A stretch of 64,000 bases of DNA from Candidatus Undivivens industriae (GCA_012514745.1 JAAYZR010000015.1:7479-71478), one strand, 5' to 3'. Shown: positions 978-59,380, counted from the stretch's first letter. Numbers and translations: made by a program. Notes: generated from the sequence alone by a model not told the origin.

Positions 978-2239
978 AGCCGTTCCCCCAGCGCGGAGAA
1001 TTCCGCCTTGAACGCCCGCCCCCGCTCTTCATAATTGGTAAACATGTCGAAACTGGAGCACATGGGAGACAACAGCACATAATCGCCCGCAGAAGCTTCC
1101 CGGAAGGCCTTTTGCACGGCGTCCGGCATCCCGGAGGCGTATTCCACAGGCACGCACCCGCCCAGGCAATCCCTTATCTTGTCTTTCGCTTCGCCTATCA
1201 GCAACAGCTTTTTCACCTTTCCCTTCGCGGCTTTGGCTATCAAAGAGTAATCGCATCCCTTATGCCTGCCGCCGGCGATCAGGAACACCCGCCCATTTAT
1301 GTTGTTCAGGGCCCACAGCGCAGATTCGGCGGTGGTCGCTTTGGAATCATTGATAAACTTTACCCCGCGCTTCTCCCCCACGAATTCGAAACGATGCTCT
1401 ATGCCGCGGAAATCTTGAAAGACCTTAACGCAGAGATCCGGGGTTATCCCGAGCAATGAAACTGCGGTCTTTACCGCGCTCTGATTCGGATTCAATCCTT
1501 CTTCCTCGCGGAAATAAACGGCCCTGGATCGCGCCTCTTTTTCCAATCCGCGCAAATACCGGTCCGACGGATTGAGCAAAAGAAAGTCTCCGTCTCCCTG
1601 GTTCAAATAAATACGTTTCTTCGCCTCGAGGTATTCCCTCATCCCCGGGTACCTGTCGAGATGATTCCTGTTTAAGTTCAATATCACAGCTATCCATGGC
1701 CTGAAATCGCGTATCGTCTCCAATTGGAAAGAACTAACCTCAAGACAGACAAAATCTTCGGCGGCCATTTTTTCCACCTCTCCGCAGAAAGGAGCTCCGA
1801 TGTTGCCGCAGACGAAAGCTTTCTTCCCGGAAGCCTTAATGACTTCCCCGATAAGAGTGGTAACAGTGGTCTTGCCGCTGGAGCCGGTGACCGCGATCAC
1901 CCTGGCCGGACAAAGCATATACGCGGCTTCTATTTCCCCTATCACCGGTATGCCGGCCTGCGCGGCGAAACCGAAAACCGGGCTTTGCGGGCCCACCCCC
2001 GGAGACACCACCACCATTTTGCTCCCGTCAAGAAATTCACGCGTGTGCCGCCCCAATTCGACCTCGATATCAGGAGAACAGAGTCCGCCCGCCGCCGTCC
2101 TGGTGAGCATACTGTCGCAGGCGTCGGTCACTCCTACGCGCGCGCCTATCCTGTATAGGAGATTGGCGCAGGCGACGCCTGAACGCGCCAGTCCCGCTAC
2201 CACGATTTTCTTCCCCTTGAAAAACTCCTGGTTTTTCAT
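974..2239 (-). CDS. murD: UDP-N-acetylmuramoylalanine--D-glutamate ligase
   Basis: 421 aa with an N-terminal Rossmann motif (KKIVVAGLARSG) and a Mur ligase ATP-binding motif (GSSGKTTVT). It lies between mraY and ftsW. Confidence 0.9.
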   Translation of the reverse strand: MKNQEFFKGKKIVVAGLARSGVACANLLYRIGARVGVTDACDSMLTRTAAGGLCSPDIEVELGRHTREFLDGSKMVVVSPGVGPQSPVFGFAAQAGIPVIGEIEAAYMLCPARVIAVTGSSGKTTVTTLIGEVIKASGKKAFVCGNIGAPFCGEVEKMAAEDFVCLEVSSFQLETIRDFRPWIAVILNLNRNHLDRYPGMREYLEAKKRIYLNQGDGDFLLLNPSDRYLRGLEKEARSRAVYFREEEGLNPNQSAVKTAVSLLGITPDLCVKVFQDFRGIEHRFEFVGEKRGVKFINDSKATTAESALWALNNINGRVFLIAGGRHKGCDYSLIAKAAKGKVKKLLLIGEAKDKIRDCLGGCVPVEYASGMPDAVQKAFREASAGDYVLLSPMCSSFDMFTNYEERGRAFKAEFSALGERL

Positions 2240-2354: not shown

Positions 2355-3444
2355 ACCTCAACTTCAGCGTTACCAGCGTCAGCAGCGCCAGAAGTCCGGC
2401 CACTATCCAGAAACGCACGATCACCTTGCTCTCCTGCCAGCCGAGAAACTGAAAATGGTGGTGCAGCGGGGCTATCTTGAATATGCGTTTGCCGGTCAAT
2501 TTGAAAGAAGCCACCTGCAGTATCACCGAAAGCGCTTCCAGGACGAACACGCCACCGATGACGACCAACAACAGCTCTTTCTTTATCAACAGCGCGACCG
2601 TTCCCAGCGCTCCGCCCAGAGCCAGAGATCCCACGTCGCCCATGAATACGGACGCGGGATAACAATTGTACCATAAAAAACCCAGCCCGGCGCCGAGTAT
2701 GGCGGAACAAAAGACCGACAGCTCCCCGGCGCCTCTTATGTAGGGAATGAAAAGATAACTGCTGAAACGTATATTGCCCGCGACGTAACTCAATATCCCC
2801 AGCGCCAGGGCGGCCATGACCACGTTCCCGGCGGCAAGTCCATCCAGCCCGTCGGTAAGATTAACCGCGTTGGATGACCCGGCGATGACCAGCGCGGCGA
2901 ATAATATATAAAACACACCCAGGTCTATTGTGACCTCCTTCATAAAGGGGATGTCCAGGGCGGTCCCGTACTGGCCGTCTAAAAAAATAACTGCCCCCGC
3001 TATCAACCCCAACACCAGCTGGCTCGCGAGTTTCTGAGCCGCGCTCAGGCCCTTGGAACGCTTTCTGACCTGCTTCAGATAATCGTCCGCGAAACCGGTA
3101 AGCCCGAGCCAGAGAGTGACCGTCAGAGCGATGATAATGTTCTTGTTAAGCGCTTCCGACCAGAGCAGCGTGGAAATAAAGACAGCCGCCAGTATAAATA
3201 TCCCGCCCATAGTGGGCGTATCCTGCTTGTTTATCTGCAGTTTGTAAAGTTCGCCGCTCTCTTTATTATTGCGGATGTTCTCCCCTATCTTTTGCCGTCT
3301 GAGCATGTTTATTATCCGCGGGCCGAGAATCAAACTGAGCAGGAACGCGGTCAAAGCCGCCATCGCCGCCCTGAAGGTGATGTAACGGAATACGTTGAAA
3401 AGAGCTATTTCTCCATGCAGGGGATAAAAAAGGTAGTATAACAT
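2353..3444 (-). CDS. mraY: Phospho-N-acetylmuramoyl-pentapeptide transferase
   Basis: MLYYLFYPLHGEIALFNVFRYITFRAAMA… is the canonical MraY N-terminus and the protein is polytopic. The track ORF begins at a TTG (3480) inside a REP copy. The likely true start is ATG 3444, preceded by GGAGG. Confidence 0.9.
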   Translation of the reverse strand: MLYYLFYPLHGEIALFNVFRYITFRAAMAALTAFLLSLILGPRIINMLRRQKIGENIRNNKESGELYKLQINKQDTPTMGGIFILAAVFISTLLWSEALNKNIIIALTVTLWLGLTGFADDYLKQVRKRSKGLSAAQKLASQLVLGLIAGAVIFLDGQYGTALDIPFMKEVTIDLGVFYILFAALVIAGSSNAVNLTDGLDGLAAGNVVMAALALGILSYVAGNIRFSSYLFIPYIRGAGELSVFCSAILGAGLGFLWYNCYPASVFMGDVGSLALGGALGTVALLIKKELLLVVIGGVFVLEALSVILQVASFKLTGKRIFKIAPLHHHFQFLGWQESKVIVRFWIVAGLLALLTLVTLKLR

Positions 3445-3536: not shown

Positions 3537-4950
3537 CAAACACTTTCTCCATCCGCATCCCGCGCGAACCTTTGACCAACACGAGGTCTCTGCGGGTAAC
3601 CTTAAGCGTATCGCGCAGAATACCGGCTGCTTGCGCGGAATCAGCGCAGCAGAATACCTTGTCCGCCGCGAACCCGGCATCCAGCGCGGCCCCGGCGGCG
3701 GCGCGGGCGAGCCCGCCGACAGCCACGAGGACATCGCATACCCCGGCGGCCCGCGTTCCGGCCAGGCGGTGAAACTCGCCGGAGTCCGGCCCCAATTCCA
3801 GCATATCCCCCATCACCAGCACTTTCCTGCCTACGGCGGTTATCGCCCCCAGAGCCTCGACGGCACGCTCAAACGAAAGCGGATTGGAATTATATGTATC
3901 GTCTATGAACACCGTCACATCGCTCTTGAACAGGCTCATCCTGCCGGACGGAAAATCAAAACCGCCTAATTTAGCGCATATCCGATCGTAATCTATACCG
4001 AGTATCCTGCCGACCGCGGCCGCGGCCAGGGCGTTATAAACGTTATGCGCCCCCACGGTCTTCAACCGGCATGGGATTTTCCTCCCGCGCCCGAGCAGAA
4101 ACTCCACTCCGCGCCGCGTGGTTTTTATCCCGGAAGCGATAAAATCGGCTCCCGGAGACATCCCGTAACCGAATGCCCGGCGCCTCTTGACCAGCGGAAA
4201 CAGCATTTTATCGTCGGCATTAAGTATCGCTGCCCCCGGGCGGCGCAGGAATTTCAACAGAGACGCCTTTTCCTTCAGAACCCCGTTCAAACTGCCGAAA
4301 TGTTCCAGGTGAGAAGGCCCTATATTGGTAATAACGGCCATTGTCGGCCTGCAGACCGCGGCAAGATAAGCGATCTCGCCCGGGTGGTTGCTACCCAGCT
4401 CAAAGACAGCCGCCTGGTGCGAGGCCTTCAACTCCAGCAACGCCAGCGGCATTCCTATATGATTATTCCTGGTGCCCCGGTTTTTCAACACCCTGTAACC
4501 GGCGGAAAGCGCGCAGGCGATCATATCCTTGGTTGTGGTCTTGCCGTTAGAACCGGTCACGGCGACCACCGGTATATCGAAACGCATTCTGTGGAAATGC
4601 GCGATAGCGGCAAGCGCCCTGACCGTGTCTTTGACCACAACCACGTCCGGCCCTGACGGTATCCCTGAAAGGCCGCGCCTTGCCGTAACCAGACAGGCAG
4701 CGCCTTTGCGCGCCGCCTCCGCCAGAAAATCATGCCCGTCGAAATGCTCCCCTTTAACCGCGACAAAAACCTGACCCGGCACTACAGAACGGGAATCTAT
4801 AGAGACACCGCGCATACTCCTCTCAACGCTGCCGGGACGTACCAGTCCCCTACTGGGACGTGCCAGCCCCCTACTGGGACGTGCCAGTCCCGTACAGGGA
4901 CGTGCCAGTCCCCCGCCGGTAGCCTTCAGGATCTCTGAGAGCGTAAACAT
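3514..4950 (-). CDS. murF: UDP-N-acetylmuramoyl-tripeptide--D-alanyl-D-alanine ligase
   Basis: 478 aa with Mur ligase motifs (GSNGKTTTK). The last 7 codons and the stop lie inside a REP copy. The N-terminus contains 4×21-bp tandem repeats (4834..4917). Confidence 0.9.
   Translation of the reverse strand: MFTLSEILKATGGGLARPCTGLARPSRGLARPSRGLVRPGSVERSMRGVSIDSRSVVPGQVFVAVKGEHFDGHDFLAEAARKGAACLVTARRGLSGIPSGPDVVVVKDTVRALAAIAHFHRMRFDIPVVAVTGSNGKTTTKDMIACALSAGYRVLKNRGTRNNHIGMPLALLELKASHQAAVFELGSNHPGEIAYLAAVCRPTMAVITNIGPSHLEHFGSLNGVLKEKASLLKFLRRPGAAILNADDKMLFPLVKRRRAFGYGMSPGADFIASGIKTTRRGVEFLLGRGRKIPCRLKTVGAHNVYNALAAAAVGRILGIDYDRICAKLGGFDFPSGRMSLFKSDVTVFIDDTYNSNPLSFERAVEALGAITAVGRKVLVMGDMLELGPDSGEFHRLAGTRAAGVCDVLVAVGGLARAAAGAALDAGFAADKVFCCADSAQAAGILRDTLKVTRRDLVLVKGSRGMRMEKVFEFRGHNT
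4834..4917. repeat. Intragenic 4 × 21-bp tandem repeat in the murF 5′ coding region
   Basis: GGGACGTRCCAGYCCCCTACT ×4. It encodes the N-terminal (T)GLARPSR heptapeptide repeats of MurF. Confidence 0.85.
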
Positions 4951-20181: not shown

Positions 20182-20187
20182 ATTCTT

Positions 20188-21193
20188 AATTCCGGGGACA
20201 CAATACTTAATTCAAGAAAACGACAAGAAATCGTGTTAGATTTTACCATTTTCTTGCGTCTATTATAAGAGAATAGAATTATAGCATAAGTTTCTAATTC
20301 CGGGGACACAATACTTAATTCCCCTTCTCAAATTATACGGCTCCGCGGGATACCGTTTGTTCTCGGAAGGATTTTCTTGAGATAGCGGCCAAACCTCATC
20401 TGCTCCATAAATGGCGCGCTTTTTGTATAAACCAACAAGAAGGAGGCTTTCAATGGCAAGGATAGCGAGATTAGTCGTGCCCGGAATCCCCCACCACATT
20501 GTGCAGAGAGGCAACAGACGCCAAGATGTTTTCTTTAACGACGATGACAGAAGGGCCTATCTTAATTATCTAAAAGCATACGCTATTCCTTCTGGGATAG
20601 AATTCCTGTCATATTGTTTAATGGATAATCACGTGCATATTATTGGTATCCCGAGTAACAAGGATAGTTTTGCCGACGGTTTCGGAGAAGCACATCGCAG
20701 GTACACAAGAATGATCAATTTTAGAAAAGGATGGAGAGGATATTTGTGGGAAGGCAGATTCAAATCGTACCCCTTAGGGGGCGCTTATTTATATGCCGCG
20801 CTTCGTTATATAGAAATGAATCCTGTAAGAGCGGAAATGGTGAAGAACGCCTGGGACTATCCATGGTCAAGCGCAAAAGCACATGTCTTGAACCACACTG
20901 ACATTTTACTAACAAATAATTGTATCGCTTCGGAAGTGGAGGACTGGAGATCTTTTCTTTCCGAAGATGACAAACAAGATCACGCCGACTTATTAGAAAC
21001 GCATTTGATGAGCGGACGGCCGTTGGGAGATAATAAATTTATCGAGAAGGTAGAAAGATTAACCGGCAAAATACTGTATAAGCAGAAACCGGGACCGAAG
21101 AAGGCTGAGGATTAATTATACGGGGATACGATACTTAATTATCGCATCTCCGGCATGAGCTGCTTAATAATTAAGTATTGTGTCCCCGGAATT
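20188..21193 (+). mobile_element. RAYT/REP locus: REP-associated tyrosine transposase gene flanked by REP copies (2 direct upstream, one REPIN downstream)
   Basis: REP at 20188..20212 and 20296..20320. RAYT CDS. Degenerate REP 21116..21140 plus inverted REP 21169..21193. Confidence 0.8.
20453..21115 (+). CDS. REP-associated tyrosine transposase (RAYT, TnpA_REP; IS200/IS605-like Y1 HUH transposase)
   Basis: MARIARLVVPGIPHHIVQRGNRRQDVF…, HUH motif in …LMDNHVHIIG…, catalytic Tyr region …YLYAALRYIEMNPVRA…. Start set at ATG 20453 (AGGAGG 7 nt upstream). The track start 20411 is an upstream in-frame Met. Confidence 0.85.
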   Translation: MARIARLVVPGIPHHIVQRGNRRQDVFFNDDDRRAYLNYLKAYAIPSGIEFLSYCLMDNHVHIIGIPSNKDSFADGFGEAHRRYTRMINFRKGWRGYLWEGRFKSYPLGGAYLYAALRYIEMNPVRAEMVKNAWDYPWSSAKAHVLNHTDILLTNNCIASEVEDWRSFLSEDDKQDHADLLETHLMSGRPLGDNKFIEKVERLTGKILYKQKPGPKKAED

Positions 21194-21196
21194 ACG

Positions 21197-21270
21197 CGCG
21201 CCTGGCAGGACTCGAACCTGCAACGCCCAGCTCCGAAGGCTGGCGCTCTATCCAATTGAGCTACAGGCGC
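21197..21270 (-). tRNA. tRNA-Arg (anticodon TCG)
   Basis: Hand-folded cloverleaf: acceptor GCGCCUG/CAGGCGC, D-arm GCUC…GAGC, anticodon stem CCAGC/GCUGG with loop CUUCGGA (anticodon UCG), T-arm GCAGG-UUCGAGU-CCUGC. CCA is not encoded. Confidence 0.8.
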
Positions 21271-21454
21271 ATAATTAATGTGTACTTGCGCAATTCCTCA
21301 TAAGCGCAAGGTGCGCATAATTAATGTGTACTTGCGTAATTCCTCATAAACGCAAGGTACGCATAATCAATGTGTACTTGCGCAATTCCTTACAAGTGCA
21401 AGGTACGCATAATTAATGTGTACTTGCGCAATCCCTTACAAGTGCAAGGTACTC
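21271..21454. repeat. Tandem repeat, 4 × 46 bp, directly abutting the 5′ end of tRNA-Arg
   Basis: Units at 21271, 21317, 21363 and 21409 (about 90 % identical). Each unit contains the inverted repeat CTTGCGC…GCGCAAG. Confidence 0.85.
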
Positions 21455-21559
21455 AAAATCCAAATCTTCAGCGGCGGGCGCATAAGCGCAACGCGCGCGC
21501 ACACACGGTACTTTCATTTTTCCAGGAATCTATAACCCCGCACCCAGGGCCCGCTTGTA

Positions 21560-22294
21560 TTACACCGCCTCCGCCGACGGCCCGAGGACGCGCATAATTT
21601 CTTCTATCCTCTGTTTGTCCAAAGGAACAACGCCTTCTTCCGCCGGCTTGCGCACCGGGGAATTAACCTGTATTTTGTCCGGCTTTATGCGTTCCACGGC
21701 CTGCTTCAACCCGGCGATATCCTCCGGCGAGTCGTTAAGGCCGCGCACAAGCATTATTTCCAGCCAGATCTTACCGGGATATTCCTTCCGGAATTCCTCC
21801 AGAGCGTTTATTATATCCGTTATCCTTGTCCCGGGGACCGGCCGGTCTATCTTTTCGAAGGTTTCCTGCCTTGCCGCATCCAGGGAAGGCACCACAAGGT
21901 CGGCTGACAGGAGCTCTTTACGAACTGAAGGCGACACCAGCATGGAGGAATTGGTGATCACCGCCACCGGCAGATCTACCATTTTCTTTATATCTAAAAT
22001 CATCTCCCCCAGCTTATTGTTAAGACAGGGTTCGCCTGTGCCGGCGATGGTCACGTAACTCAGTTTGGCAGCGGTATCTTTATGCTCATCAAGCCACTCC
22101 CGCAGAGCGGAAAGTACCTGCCCGGCGGAAGAATATTCTTTTCGTTCGCCGGTCCTCATAGTCGTCCTGCCCGCCTGGCAATATACGCAGTCAAAACTGC
22201 AGGTCTTGTAAGGAGTAAGATTAATCCCCAGAGAAAGACCGAGCCTGCGGGAGTTTATCGGACCGTAGATATACAAGTTTTTGCCGCGAATCAT
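21560..22294 (-). CDS. Radical SAM domain protein (function unknown)
   Basis: CxxxCxxC motif (CSFDCVYC) near the N-terminus, about 244 aa. Confidence 0.65.
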   Translation of the reverse strand: MIRGKNLYIYGPINSRRLGLSLGINLTPYKTCSFDCVYCQAGRTTMRTGERKEYSSAGQVLSALREWLDEHKDTAAKLSYVTIAGTGEPCLNNKLGEMILDIKKMVDLPVAVITNSSMLVSPSVRKELLSADLVVPSLDAARQETFEKIDRPVPGTRITDIINALEEFRKEYPGKIWLEIMLVRGLNDSPEDIAGLKQAVERIKPDKIQVNSPVRKPAEEGVVPLDKQRIEEIMRVLGPSAEAV

Positions 22295-30422: not shown

Positions 30423-30475
30423 TTCCGGGGACACAATACTTAATTATAATAATTAAGTATTGTGTCCCCGGAATT
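30423..30475. repeat. REPIN (5-bp spacer) at the dnaB 3′ end
   Basis: Forward copy 30423..30445, inverted copy 30451..30475. The dnaB stop TAA is at 30474..30476. Confidence 0.9.
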
Positions 30476-31820
30476 AAAACTCTACCCTGGCGTAATTTTC
30501 AAAACGGGTATATTCTTTTATAAAGGAGAGTTTGACCGATCCGACCGGGCCGTTGCGTTGTTTGGCGACTATGATTTCGGCGATACCTTGATTTTCCGGG
30601 GTGGGATTATAATATTCTTCCCTGAGAATAAGCACCACCACGTCCGCGTCCTGCTCGATGGCTCCCGATTCCCTCAAATCCGATAACTGCGGGCGGTGAT
30701 CGTCGCGGCGCTCCACGGCGCGCGAAAGCTGGCTGATGGCGATAACCGGCACGTTCAGCTCTCTGGCCAGCGCCTTCAAAGAACGCGATATCTCGGATAT
30801 CTCCTGCTGTCGGCTCTCGTCCGAACCGCTGCCGCTGCCGCGCATCAACTGCAGGTAATCCAGGATTATAAACTGGATATCATGGTGAGCCTTGAGCCTG
30901 CGCGCCTTGGCGCGCAGTTCCATTACCGAAATGCCCGGGGTATCGTCGATATAGATGGGCGCCTCGGAAAGCCGTCCGGCGGCCGCGGTGAGTTTGGGCC
31001 AGTCGGACGCGGAAAGGTATCCGGTCCTGACCTTATGGGCGTCAACCCTGGCGTGAGAACAAAGCATCCTTTGCACGAGCTGTTCTTTGGACATTTCCAG
31101 GCTGAATATAGCGGTGGGCACTTTGGCGGACACCCCGGCGTATTCGGCCATAGACAAAGCCAAAGCGCTCTTCCCCATGGAAGGGCGCGCAGCCACGATC
31201 ACCAGATCGGACGCCTGCATACCGGAGGTTATCGTGTCGAAATCCAGGAAACCGGTGGGGATACCGGTGACATGCGCCTTCTTCTGGTAGAGGCGGTCGA
31301 TATTCTCTATGCTGTCCTTGATGATCTCTTTCAGGTGGATGGCGCTTCCCCGGTGGCGGCGGTCGCTCACTTCGAAGATGAGTTTCTCGGCGTTATCGAC
31401 CAGCTCGCGGACGTTCCCCTCGTTCTCGTAACAGGAGGAGATGATGCGTGTGGCGCTGCTGATCAGCCCGCGCAGAACGCTTTTATCGCGCACTATCCCG
31501 CTGTAATGACGGATATTGGCCGCGCTCGGCACCGCATTGACCATAGACGCCAGATAACTGGCCCCGCCGGTCTCCTCGAGTATCCCCTTGCGGCGCAGTT
31601 CGTCTGTCAGCGTGATAAGATCAACCGCCTTGTTGACGTTGAAAAGATCCAGTATGGTTTCGAATATCTTGCGGTGGGAATCTTTATAGAAACATTCTTT
31701 GCCGAGGTGCTCCGCGGCGACCGCTATCGCCTCTTCATCCATAAGCATGGAACCGAGGACAGCCATTTCGGCGTCCAGGTTCTGCGGCGGGAGTTTCTCG
31801 ATGGAACTTTCCGTAGGCAT
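30474..31820 (-). CDS. dnaB: Replicative DNA helicase
   Basis: Walker A GKS/T motif (ARPSMGKSALALS) and a DnaB N-terminal domain (LPPQNLDAEMAVLGSML). The start is probably ATG 31820. The stop abuts a REPIN. Confidence 0.9.
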   Translation of the reverse strand: MPTESSIEKLPPQNLDAEMAVLGSMLMDEEAIAVAAEHLGKECFYKDSHRKIFETILDLFNVNKAVDLITLTDELRRKGILEETGGASYLASMVNAVPSAANIRHYSGIVRDKSVLRGLISSATRIISSCYENEGNVRELVDNAEKLIFEVSDRRHRGSAIHLKEIIKDSIENIDRLYQKKAHVTGIPTGFLDFDTITSGMQASDLVIVAARPSMGKSALALSMAEYAGVSAKVPTAIFSLEMSKEQLVQRMLCSHARVDAHKVRTGYLSASDWPKLTAAAGRLSEAPIYIDDTPGISVMELRAKARRLKAHHDIQFIILDYLQLMRGSGSGSDESRQQEISEISRSLKALARELNVPVIAISQLSRAVERRDDHRPQLSDLRESGAIEQDADVVVLILREEYYNPTPENQGIAEIIVAKQRNGPVGSVKLSFIKEYTRFENYARVEF

Positions 31821-41673: not shown

Positions 41674-41703
41674 TTTTATCCCGGAACTCGCGCGTGACGG
41701 CGT

Positions 41704-41770
41704 AATTCCGGGGACACAATACTTAATTGTGTGTGCTTTTAGGAATAATTAAGTATTGTGTCCCCGGATT
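41704..41770. repeat. REPIN between the TPR lipoprotein gene and the small basic ORF
   Basis: Forward copy 41704..41728, inverted copy 41747..41770 (1-nt deletion). The spacer GTGTGTGCTTTTAGGAAT is homologous to the spacer of the 45427 REPIN in reverse. Confidence 0.9.
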
Positions 41771-45426: not shown

Positions 45427-45492
45427 ATTCCGGGGACACAATACTTAATTATTTCTAAAACCACACACAATTAAGTATTGTGTCCCCGGAAT
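45427..45492. repeat. REPIN between the ferredoxin and rubrerythrin-like genes
   Basis: Forward copy 45427..45450, inverted copy 45469..45492. The rubrerythrin-like stop abuts it. Confidence 0.9.
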
Positions 45493-48973: not shown

Positions 48974-49104
48974 TACATTCGGGATGAAAGACAAGTTGGG
49001 TTCTGTTGGTTACTGTAACCGAAAATCGAAAGTTGACCGTCTCGCCACTGAAGCGTTGGCGGTTTCGTGCGCTGTCCAAAAAACTTACTGAACAGCACAC
49101 TCCC
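48974..49104 (+). repeat. Family-2 mosaic intergenic element (about 131 bp), full copy A
   Basis: About 85 % identical to the reverse complement of 52335..52474. It contains GGTTACnGTAACC and GCCRCYGAAGCGTTGGCGG inverted repeats and the terminal hairpin GTGCGCTGT…ACAGCACAC. Confidence 0.85.
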
Positions 49105-49400: not shown

Positions 49401-49720
49401 ATTTAATCCCCTCGCCCAGAAATCCCCGGGTTTTAACCCGGGGGTACCTTAGCCTATAGGATGGCTAAGTATTCACCTGTGTGTTATACCTTAGCCTATA
49501 GGAATAACACCCTGCCTTAAAGGAAAGGCAGGTGTTCACCAGTGTGAAAGTATTCGCTCGTGCGTTATACCTTGGCCAATTGGGATAACACCCTGCCTTT
49601 AAAGGAGAGGCAGGTGTTCACCAGTGTGAAAGTATTCGCTCGTGCGGTACACCTTAGCTTATTGGAAAGCTAAGTGTTCGCTCGTGCGAAGGAGCCGCGG
49701 GCTTTAGCCCGAGGGGCTCC
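49401..49720. repeat. Composite repeat region: 28-bp GGATTAAAT/CCGGGG module (inverted), a CCCCGGG hairpin, about 3 tandem ~82-bp units (49446..49688), and a GGAGCCGCGGGCTTTAGCCCGAGGGGCTCC hairpin
   Basis: Units: 49446..49487 (partial), 49488..49568, 49569..49650, 49651..49688 (partial). Each full unit contains CTGCCTTAAAGGAAAGGCAG and TTCACCAGTGTGAA hairpins. Confidence 0.8.
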
Positions 49721-52334: not shown

Positions 52335-52474
52335 AGTGCGCTGTTTGATAAGTTTTTTACAGCACACAGAGGCCGCCAACGCTTCGGCGGCGGGACGGTC
52401 AAATTTCGCCTTTCGATTTTCGGTTACGGTAACCAACAGAACCCAACTTATCTTTTTCCCCGAATGGGTCCCCC
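52335..52474 (-). repeat. Family-2 mosaic intergenic element, full copy B (inverted relative to A)
   Basis: Hand alignment with copy A across its full length. Terminal hairpin GTGCGCTGTTTGATAAG…CAGCACAC. Confidence 0.85.
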
Positions 52475-59204: not shown

Positions 59205-59303
59205 AACCTGTTGAAAGATATAAGAAACGGGTTGAACAATAATATTCGCATCTCTGTCGGTGCCGTTATGATAACACAGCGGGGAAAACAAGGCAAACCT
59301 TTT

Positions 59304-59369
59304 AATTCCGGGGACACAATACTTAATTATTGTTGTCGCCTTACAATTAAGTATTGTGTCCCCGGAATT
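59304..59369. repeat. REPIN in the divergent era–mutS intergenic region
   Basis: Forward copy 59304..59328, inverted copy 59345..59369. Confidence 0.9.
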
Positions 59370-59380
59370 ACAGGTATAAA

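Follow-up and report, generated by a model that had tools for sequence, protein, structure and literature searches.

INTRODUCTION

The closest described counterpart of the locus considered here is the repeat array at tyrT and tyrV of Escherichia coli (178 bp x 3.14; rtT/RttR, tpr), in which the repeats adjoin a tRNA gene in register with it and the units carry terminal bases of that tRNA. Egan and Landy (1978) and Rossi et al. (1981) reportedly ascribed the tyrT repeats to unequal recombination. Checked here, the tyrV array has a period of 178, 3.1 copies and an overlap with the last 19 nucleotides (nt) of the tRNA. One repeat unit of tyrT/tyrV encodes the rtT/RttR RNA (PMC3318445), and the same paper describes the array as co-transcribed with the tRNA and the unit as yielding a small RNA (PMC3318445, citing Bosl & Kersten 1991). 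The array that we describe lies in a 64,000-nt stretch of DNA from Candidatus Undivivens industriae (GCA_012514745.1 JAAYZR010000015.1:7479-71478), called the window below, where four 46-nt units directly adjoin the gene for tRNA-Arg(UCG); an earlier note on this DNA had drawn attention to it. It resembles tyrT/tyrV in register and in the tRNA bases carried by its units, but it sits at the 5' end of the tRNA instead of the 3' end, its units measure 46 nt with 3-4 tRNA nt instead of 178 nt with 19, and its unit is a conserved palindrome common to two isoacceptor genes and set in a wider mosaic leader.

Other systems share some of these features. Like bacterial variable-number tandem repeats (VNTRs) or minisatellites, the units are intergenic, stand head to tail with few substitutions, have a period that is not a multiple of 3 and occur in 4, 2, 1 or 0 copies in near-identical genomes; unlike VNTRs, the unit is much older than the array, is conserved between lineages with nearly saturated synonymous sites and is bound to a single kind of gene. 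Classically, integrative elements carry an integrase and duplicate the 3' portion of a tRNA gene. With their tRNA fragments (attL/attR) the locus has in common short exact copies of a tRNA end near an intact gene, and tRNA-Arg as a recurrent site; here, however, the fragments come from the 5' end, the inserts span 40-180 nt, integrase is absent and several of the inserts are tandem copies of local sequence. Repetitive extragenic palindromes (REPs) and bacterial interspersed mosaic elements, together with the REP-associated tyrosine transposases (RAYTs), are likewise short extragenic palindromes in transcribed spacers, and REP hairpins protect upstream mRNA 3' ends in E. coli. Our unit differs from them in being undispersed (0 other copies in 64 kb vs at least 16 REPs), in having no REP sequence in common and in occurring at loci that lack a RAYT. 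Our searches of the literature turned up no account of repeats anchored to the 5' side of a tRNA, whether in Omnitrophota or in other bacteria. By analogy, the array mirrors on the 5' side the 178-bp repeats of E. coli tyrT, and it also counts as an ordinary VNTR. We propose, with a probability of about 0.65, that it is a minisatellite of variable copy number, that the pre-tRNA leader in which it lies is transcribed, and that it arose as tandem duplications recurred across the 5' boundary of the tRNA.

RESULTS

A 46-nt array in register with tRNA-Arg(UCG)

Tandem Repeats Finder (TRF) reports a period of 46 with 4.2 copies, 91% matches, no indels and a score of 293 at 21268-21459, and a repeat search places the units at spacings of 46, 46 and 46. 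In the window, a 23-nt core of the unit is present four times, always within the array, and 100 shuffles contain it 0 times. Taken with the ARAGORN and Rfam coordinates (Table 1), these results bear out the four 46-bp repeats that the earlier note had seen against the mature tRNA 5' end; the tRNA call itself, put to a covariance-model check, is upheld with a score well over the gathering threshold of the family. On the tRNA strand a unit reads GCG[C/T]ACCTTGCGCTTATGAGGAATTGCGCAAGTACACATTAATTAT, and the tRNA start, GCGCCTGTAG..., follows directly after U1, the tRNA-proximal unit. The array is thus contiguous with the gene and its register runs 3-4 nt into the tRNA 5' end; because GCG is common to unit and tRNA, the TRF array reaches 3 nt inside and ends at tRNA +3. 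The amplified segment is -43 to +3 of the tRNA, so every junction reads ...TTAT/GCG. The heads are GCGC in U1, GCGT in U2 and U3 and GAGT in U4, against GCGC at the tRNA start. The earlier description of the units needs amending on two counts: only U1 starts with GCGCACC, as all were said to do (U2 and U3 have GCGTACC, U4 GAGTACC), and of the 7-bp inverted repeats ascribed to each, those of U1 and U2 are perfect while U3 and U4 form 6/7 pairs (CTTGCAC/GCGCAAG). The stem variant of U2 is the same as in the first full unit at a second tRNA-Arg locus (L005_a), discussed below.

The array is real and not an assembly artefact. Its distal two units are reproduced base for base in two independent read sets (Logan SRR5007708 and SRR12814722), and other assemblies carry 2-unit versions. 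Both read sets break inside the array, as the repeats cause short-read assemblies to fragment at this locus. With head-to-tail copies and a copy number that is polymorphic at the orthologous site, the array qualifies as a tandem repeat of the VNTR kind. The tRNA gene encodes no CCA, and its discriminator in the window is G73 (position 21197), with A73 in all fetched relatives bar L021.

Copy number among relatives and a second tRNA-Arg locus

The spacer between an upstream radical-SAM gene and the tRNA proves to be a mosaic of short hairpin modules, namely A (the 46-nt unit), Y and X. We compared it among loci fetched from other genomes (numbered with the prefix L), giving identities to the window as nucleotide identity of the radical-SAM gene. 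The window itself belongs to Candidatus Omnitrophota and has a match in a JGI metagenome contig (L001). The genomes with the same tRNA 5' half are Candidatus Omnitrophota metagenome-assembled genomes, except one labelled Planctomycetales. Where the window has four units, L013 and L014 (98.5%) have the same leader with two units adjoining the tRNA, and in L006 (98.5%) two units are followed by a 16-nt copy of the tRNA 5' end, a block X of about 100 nt and then the tRNA. L008 (~96%) has three diverged units in a 163-nt period made of unit, 16-nt fragment and X. A single unit is present in L020, and also in L023 (77%), there between two copies of module Y. No unit is found in L007 (95%), whose junction keeps the tail of X (AAAGTCTCTTTGC); its absence of units is therefore a secondary deletion. 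This comparison with tRNA-Arg loci of related genomes, proposed in the earlier note, shows a copy-number-variable array in a modular leader. It also supports the idea of a hotspot, copy number being 0/1/2/3/4 among relatives and unrelated tRNA-headed repeats occupying the same site in other Omnitrophota.

An unlinked locus, following a PAS-GGDEF-HD-GYP gene, has this 46-nt unit in front of tRNA-Arg(ACG), again in the same register. There it is present in two copies in L004, four in L005 and two in L032 and L033. The L004 and L005 contigs carry the REP family of the window and therefore belong to the same or a very close lineage. In L032 the first A unit (3050-3094) has received a 45-nt insertion with two small hairpins exactly in its loop, with stems and tail intact. 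The tRNA-Arg(UCG) and tRNA-Arg(ACG) genes are exactly identical over their first 26 nt. Beyond these two tRNA-Arg sites, the unit was found neither elsewhere in the 64-kb window nor in any fetched locus, and it is therefore not a dispersed repeat.

A modular leader headed by copies of the tRNA 5' end

Module Y (GCG[C/T]CCGCCA-loop-TGGCG[A/G]GAC, then TTTTCTG...ATTCTTGA; about 50 nt) is present as full units, with hairpin and T-run, in L020, L023, L021 and L015; module X measures about 100 nt. All modules have a copy or relic of the tRNA 5' end at their start and TTAT or TTGA at their end. Reading towards the tRNA, the order is Y(remnant)-A-A-A-A-tRNA in the window, Y-A-Y-tRNA in L023, Y-A-fragment-X-tRNA in L020, Y-Y-Y-tRNA in L021 and Y-Y-...-X-tRNA in L015. 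In the window, the segment next to U4 had been considered as a decayed tRNA D-arm (21455-21484); this was rejected, since comparison with L020 and L023 shows an internally deleted Y. Beyond it, TTGCGCTTAT at 21482-21491 looks like a truncated relic of an older A copy upstream of Y.

Distant lineages have unrelated modules that follow the same logic. L009 contains a 68-nt unit twice, each copy headed GCGCCTG[T/C]; L012 a 184-nt block headed by 12 tRNA nt; L025 a 51-nt module headed GCGCCTG; and L029 two modules, headed GCGCCCAT and GCGCCGA. In a census of the tRNA-Arg(UCG) loci, 8/15 have an exact copy of their own first 7-16 tRNA nt no more than 330 nt upstream, representing about six independent events, where by our estimate chance would give about 0.04 copies per locus. 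None of six control tRNAs (Gln, Ser, Lys) has a copy of its own 5' end upstream. The fragments match each lineage's own tRNA variant (GCGCCTATA in L015, GCGCCCAT in L029), and the duplication events are therefore local and recurrent.

How far does the likeness to tRNA extend into the modules? X aligns to tRNA positions 17-46 (p < 0.002) and the L012 insert aligns significantly to positions 23-40; both are therefore decayed tRNA-Arg copies. The likeness of an L029 module (L029b) to tRNA is also significant. Beyond the first 3-7 nt, modules A and Y show no significant tRNA similarity, and neither does the L025 module, and the notion that all modules are decayed tRNA copies was accordingly given up. 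A by-eye resemblance of the A stem to the anticodon stem of tRNA-Arg(ACG) (ACTTGC...GCAAGT) falls short of significance and is not claimed.

Some further sequences touch on these modules. Y-type hairpins recur at three further sites in the window, where 0.07 would be expected. A dispersed element of at least 100 nt is found at 49039-49062 (minus strand) and 52373-52396 (plus strand) of the window and at 2052-2075 (minus strand) of L016; it has the hairpins GTGCGCTGTT...AACAGCGCAC, then CCGCCAACGCTTC.G.GGCGRGAC, the second of which resembles module Y, followed by a conserved tail ...TTTTCGGTTAC.GTAACCAACAGAACCCAACTT, and no Rfam family matches it. The X tail AAGTCTCTTTAT/GC just upstream of the tRNA (L006 1163-1180, L007 5199-5212, L020 2353-2366) contains CUCUUUA; this may be a lead, since the boxA antitermination motif of E. 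coli rrn has such a core. In L029 (~2175-2186, 12 nt) and L032 (~3378-3387, 10 nt), pieces of the tRNA-Arg 3' end follow the intact tRNA at a distance of about 100-116 nt, so the 3' side of tRNA-Arg also gathers partial copies, of the tyrT or att type.

Conservation and folding of the hairpin

The inverted repeat CTTGCGC-N12-GCGCAAG can be extended to a stem of 12 pairs with one bulge. Between the window and L023, module A is identical at 42/46 positions, as against 59.6% of third codon positions in the neighbouring gene (P about 2e-6). Since A is far better conserved than synonymous sites, and since its stems and tail outlast the 45-nt loop insertion of L032, something keeps the hairpin. Its divergence does not follow the host tree, however, and exchange or conversion must therefore shape A besides constraint. 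When the whole leader is folded together with the tRNA, the units pair promiscuously with one another, and the fold is uninformative.

The radical-SAM gene and probable transcription of the leader

In every Omnitrophota locus fetched, a radical-SAM gene is followed by tRNA-Arg(UCG), at 55-100% amino acid identity (the window, on the minus strand, and L007, L009-L012, L015, L020, L021, L023, L025 and L029). Its 240-amino-acid product is unclassified and falls under every NCBIfam cut-off. In L010, L011 and L007 only 3-18 nt separate the radical-SAM stop codon from tRNA +1, which implies co-transcription. The only sigma-70-like match near the tRNA on its strand is a TGGACA-16-AATTAT inside the 3' end of this gene (Table 1). 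Judged from this layout, the tRNA most likely derives from the radical-SAM transcript or from a promoter within the last part of that gene, and the radical-SAM gene is a likely source of read-through transcription. The earlier view of the array as part of the tRNA 5' leader is supported. Conservation of the pair may also reflect a functional link, with the radical-SAM protein acting, for example, as a tRNA-modifying enzyme. The units contain no mimic of the acceptor stem, which makes it unlikely that RNase P would cut each of them separately.

The REP/RAYT neighbour and other repeats

On the 3' side of the tRNA lies a RAYT gene. Its assignment in the earlier note is borne out by the Pfam match (Table 1) and by flanking 21-nt REP arms that are 100% complementary; the NCBIfam model REP_Tyr_transpos gives E = 9e-14, but under its cut-off. 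The REPIN does adjoin the tRNA, but the gap, put at 4 bp before, is 1-7 nt depending on the REP end chosen: the arm of the perfect inverted repeat stops at 21189, whereas the consensus of the dispersed REP, (G)TAATTCCGGGG, extends as far as 21195, the discriminator base being 21197. Relative to L013 (2192-2200), the window (21196-21197) is without 7 nt (CTTGTTT) between tRNA and REP, so that the REP begins 1 nt past the discriminator. At least 16 copies of the REP family, (G)TAATTCCGGGGACACAATACTTAATT, lie in the 64 kb (window 3466-63908), often as inverted pairs (REPINs), for example at 20187-20212, 20295-20320, 30423-30476, 41702-41768, 45427-45492 and 59303-59371, and the family is also present in L004-L008. 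The tRNA is indeed bracketed by two real repeat systems, as had been noticed, but by these comparisons the REP/RAYT neighbour is unrelated to the array: L015 and L021 have modular leaders without a RAYT, and the tRNA-Arg(ACG) locus has the array without one.

TRF found two further tandem repeats in the window, one of 82 nt x 2.5 at 49467-49667 (score 309) and one of 21 nt x 3.8 at 4834-4913 (score 132). The public contig behind L013, Ga0496407_030137, ends in Illumina adapter sequence (AGATCGGAAGAGCACACGTCTGAACTCCAGTCAC, L013 ~2296-2347), an assembly artefact.

Table 1. Positions of the array, the tRNA gene and their neighbours in the window
Feature	Position	Strand	Remarks
RAYT (REP-associated tyrosine transposase)	20411-21115	plus	convergent with tRNA; Pfam Y1_Tnp 40.8 bits, cut-off 23
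REPIN, two inverted REP copies	21121-21195	n/a	directly downstream of tRNA 3' end
tRNA-Arg(UCG)	21197-21270	minus	ARAGORN call Arg(tcg) at 21196-21270; Rfam RF00005 68.8 bits, threshold 29
Unit U1 (module A)	21271-21316	minus	tRNA-proximal; GCGCACCTTGCGCTTATGAGGAATTGCGCAAGTACACATTAATTAT; hairpin perfect
Unit U2	21317-21362	minus	stem changed on both arms (CTTGCGT/ACGCAAG)
Unit U3	21363-21408	minus	derived CACTTGTAAGG variant, common to U4
Unit U4	21409-21454	minus	distal; head GAGTACC; positional homologue is the first of two units in L013 and L006
Deleted module Y remnant	21455-21481	minus	GCGCCCGCCGCTGAAGATTTGG^ATTTT; by-eye alignment with L020 and L023
TTGCGCTTAT	21482-21491	minus	identical to module A positions 8-17; 11-nt match at 21491-21481; comparison with L008
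Radical-SAM gene	21560-22294	minus	upstream neighbour, same strand as tRNA
Sigma-70-like match TGGACA-16-AATTAT, 9/12	21594-21621	minus	inside radical-SAM 3' end; consensus match only

DISCUSSION

How might such a leader have been built? We favour a model in which local tandem duplications would recur with their right-hand end inside the first 3-16 nt of the tRNA (perhaps 3-25 nt). They would arise by slipped-strand mispairing or unequal recombination at microhomologies, after which the upstream copies would decay; the junctions GAG/TACC, GCG/TACC and GCG/CACC are consistent with microhomology. Recombination between repeats would then expand, contract and delete arrays. Derived substitutions common to U3 and U4 probably mark these two as the latest duplicate. 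The two tRNA-Arg genes could exchange sequence through their identical first 26 nt, and the recurrence of the U2 stem variant at the tRNA-Arg(ACG) locus, together with the departure of A from the host tree, does suggest exchange between the loci. Transcription of the array within the pre-tRNA would come either from read-through of the radical-SAM gene or from a promoter that precedes the array, and RNase P would remove it in one piece at 21270/21271. The promoter in front of the whole array at the tRNA-Arg(ACG) locus, described below, is indirect support for such co-transcription. Module A may have been retained for its hairpin, which, at a guess, acts in RNA, either as a 3' cap that would protect the message upstream once RNase P has cut or, when released, as a small leader RNA. 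Copy number itself is probably near neutral.

Several points weigh against this model. A, Y and X have mutually unrelated bodies, which pure tandem duplication could not create; an insertion process may be involved. For A and Y, sequence similarity gives no support to an origin by tRNA duplication. The identity of A to the window unit is 76% in the close relative L008 and 91% in the distant L023, against the host tree. Since L007 is without any module, none is essential, and on this comparison the modules are dispensable. Neither strand shows significant covariation in the hairpin, and pairing is slightly better opposite the tRNA (92% of cells vs 86% on the tRNA strand), where single-unit folds are also more stable. 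Transcription of the array and its removal by RNase P are steps that we infer.

A bolder reading, which we hold to be rather unlikely, would make the tRNA-Arg 5' boundary of Omnitrophota an active site at which tRNA-headed hairpin cassettes are created or inserted time and again. Module A would be a functional leader cassette, exchangeable and specific to tRNA-Arg isoacceptor genes, and either hairpin RNAs released by RNase P would be dosed by copy number, as a 5' counterpart of rtT, or the cassettes would be moved by a targeting mechanism.

It is distinctly unlikely that A, and perhaps Y and X, is a miniature cassette, mobile or inserted site-specifically, that targets tRNA-Arg 5' ends, duplicates the first tRNA bases and spreads between isoacceptor genes. 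Such a process would explain near-identical A units in the same register at two unlinked tRNA-Arg loci, module bodies that are mutually unrelated and yet all headed by tRNA 5' bases, the 12-14 nt direct repeats that flank the inserts in L025 and L012, the divergence of A off the host tree and the dispersal of Y-type hairpins in the window. However, no integrase or transposase is linked to the modules, and the RAYT belongs to a different repeat family and is absent at several module-bearing loci. The modules have no terminal inverted repeats, A occurs at no other site in the 64 kb and the fetched loci, and the head length of 3-16 nt is unlike a fixed target-site duplication. In viral contigs the cores of A and X had 0 matches, and the Y core had six matches, at chance level and to unrelated sequences. 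The same facts are accounted for by tandem duplication together with gene conversion by way of the common 26-nt tRNA 5' segment.

The earlier note had suggested an amplified promoter cassette, in which each 46-nt unit would be a promoter and the tRNA would be driven by four in tandem. Tandem promoters are common at tRNA and rRNA genes, the units have AT-rich 3' ends (TACACATTAATTAT) and TTGCGC twice each, and module A, which is conserved, lies upstream of a tRNA-Arg gene wherever it occurs. Scans against the sigma-70 consensus nevertheless speak against the suggestion, which we regard as very unlikely. No site of at least 9/12 is present in the array on either strand; in a relaxed scan the best reaches 8/12, being either specific to one unit or, with a 15-nt spacer, on the wrong strand, and none is conserved among the units on the tRNA strand. 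No unit offers hexamers 16-18 nt apart, with a start upstream of +1, that are kept between units. Read from the sequence, the spacings from TTGCGC to the AT box are wrong, at 7-12 or 21-26 nt. The AT-rich box occupies -1 to -9 relative to the tRNA, so with a -10 element there, in the end of U1, the transcription start would fall at about +3 to +8, within the tRNA. The organism uses canonical promoters: at the tRNA-Arg(ACG) locus an 11/12 sigma-70 promoter, TTTACA-17-TATAAT, conserved in L032 and L033, lies upstream of the whole array. In L023, L020 and L006, moreover, A precedes Y or the pseudo-tRNA X and not the tRNA.

An operator array is a highly improbable alternative. Here CTTGCGC-N12-GCGCAAG would bind a dimeric regulator of the tRNA-Arg genes, and extra copies would tune its occupancy. 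Arms and spacing are conserved while the 12-nt centre varies (L008) and even takes the 45-nt insertion (L032), one pair is altered symmetrically on both arms, RNA pairing has no clear strand preference and the element occurs at two tRNA-Arg genes only. Yet a 45-nt insertion between half-sites, as in L032, would abolish cooperative binding of a dimer, while a hairpin in RNA or DNA would be spared. The element has no candidate regulator linked to it, L007 is without it, and the match to the ARG box is poor, 12/18 by eye. Scarcely credible, finally, is an antisense role, in which the hairpins would act on the strand opposite the tRNA as stabilisers or terminators, for example of the RAYT mRNA 3' end: on the plus strand all four units form the same 12-bp hairpin (-10 to -15 kcal/mol, z -1.8 to -3.4), and three positions are G.U there and C.A on the tRNA strand, in keeping with the pairing excess given above, but no T-run follows the hairpin on that strand, the array occurs without a RAYT at the tRNA-Arg(ACG) locus and modular leaders in RAYT-less lineages, variants in L008, L023 and L004_a are G.U on the tRNA strand instead, and the strand difference has no statistical support.

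Other identities were rejected. A phage or integrative origin finds no support in viral contigs, where the tRNA 5' 26-mer matches only a phage-encoded tRNA-Arg(TCT), and an att site was dismissed as the units are 46 nt without an open reading frame (ORF) and no integrase lies between the radical-SAM gene and the tRNA. The unit is not a REP or REPIN, with 0 copies elsewhere vs at least 16 for the true REP family. It is not an intrinsic terminator, a scan finding no terminator-like site in the array and no T-run following the hairpin, whose tail is TACACATTAATTAT; module Y in relatives consists of a hairpin plus TTTTCT. A clustered regularly interspaced short palindromic repeat (CRISPR) array is excluded by contiguous units without spacers, and a coding array by the period, which is not a multiple of three, the sole ORF across the array (21370-21597, plus strand) being judged spurious. 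At gathering thresholds Rfam 15 has only tRNAs in the window, and Rfam searches with the modules of L004, L006, L008, L009 and L012 gave nothing at E <= 1. Resemblances to ARG-box, sigma-54, extracytoplasmic function sigma factor and boxA sequences, sought by eye against consensus sequences, were not convincing.

What would tandem duplication across the tRNA 5' boundary mean for these bacteria? The array itself is ordinary; the build-up of headed modules at tRNA-Arg 5' ends and a cassette common to two tRNA-Arg genes are more notable. The pattern of the census, with copies of the own 5' end in 8/15 loci vs 0/6 controls, was not found described in the literature searched. Alone it reveals no new kind of system, yet it could stem from a bias in mechanism, for example where replication and transcription conflict at a tRNA that directly follows a gene, or from an insertion process so far unrecognised. 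As a VNTR, the array is a strain-level marker for an uncultured Omnitrophota lineage. If our model is true, the locus would be a clean natural case of tRNA leaders built and rebuilt by duplications across the 5' end of the tRNA, which leave behind them a series of headed modules and pseudo-tRNA relics, with one conserved hairpin module that two arginine isoacceptor genes have in common and that is amplified to a different extent from one near-identical genome to the next.

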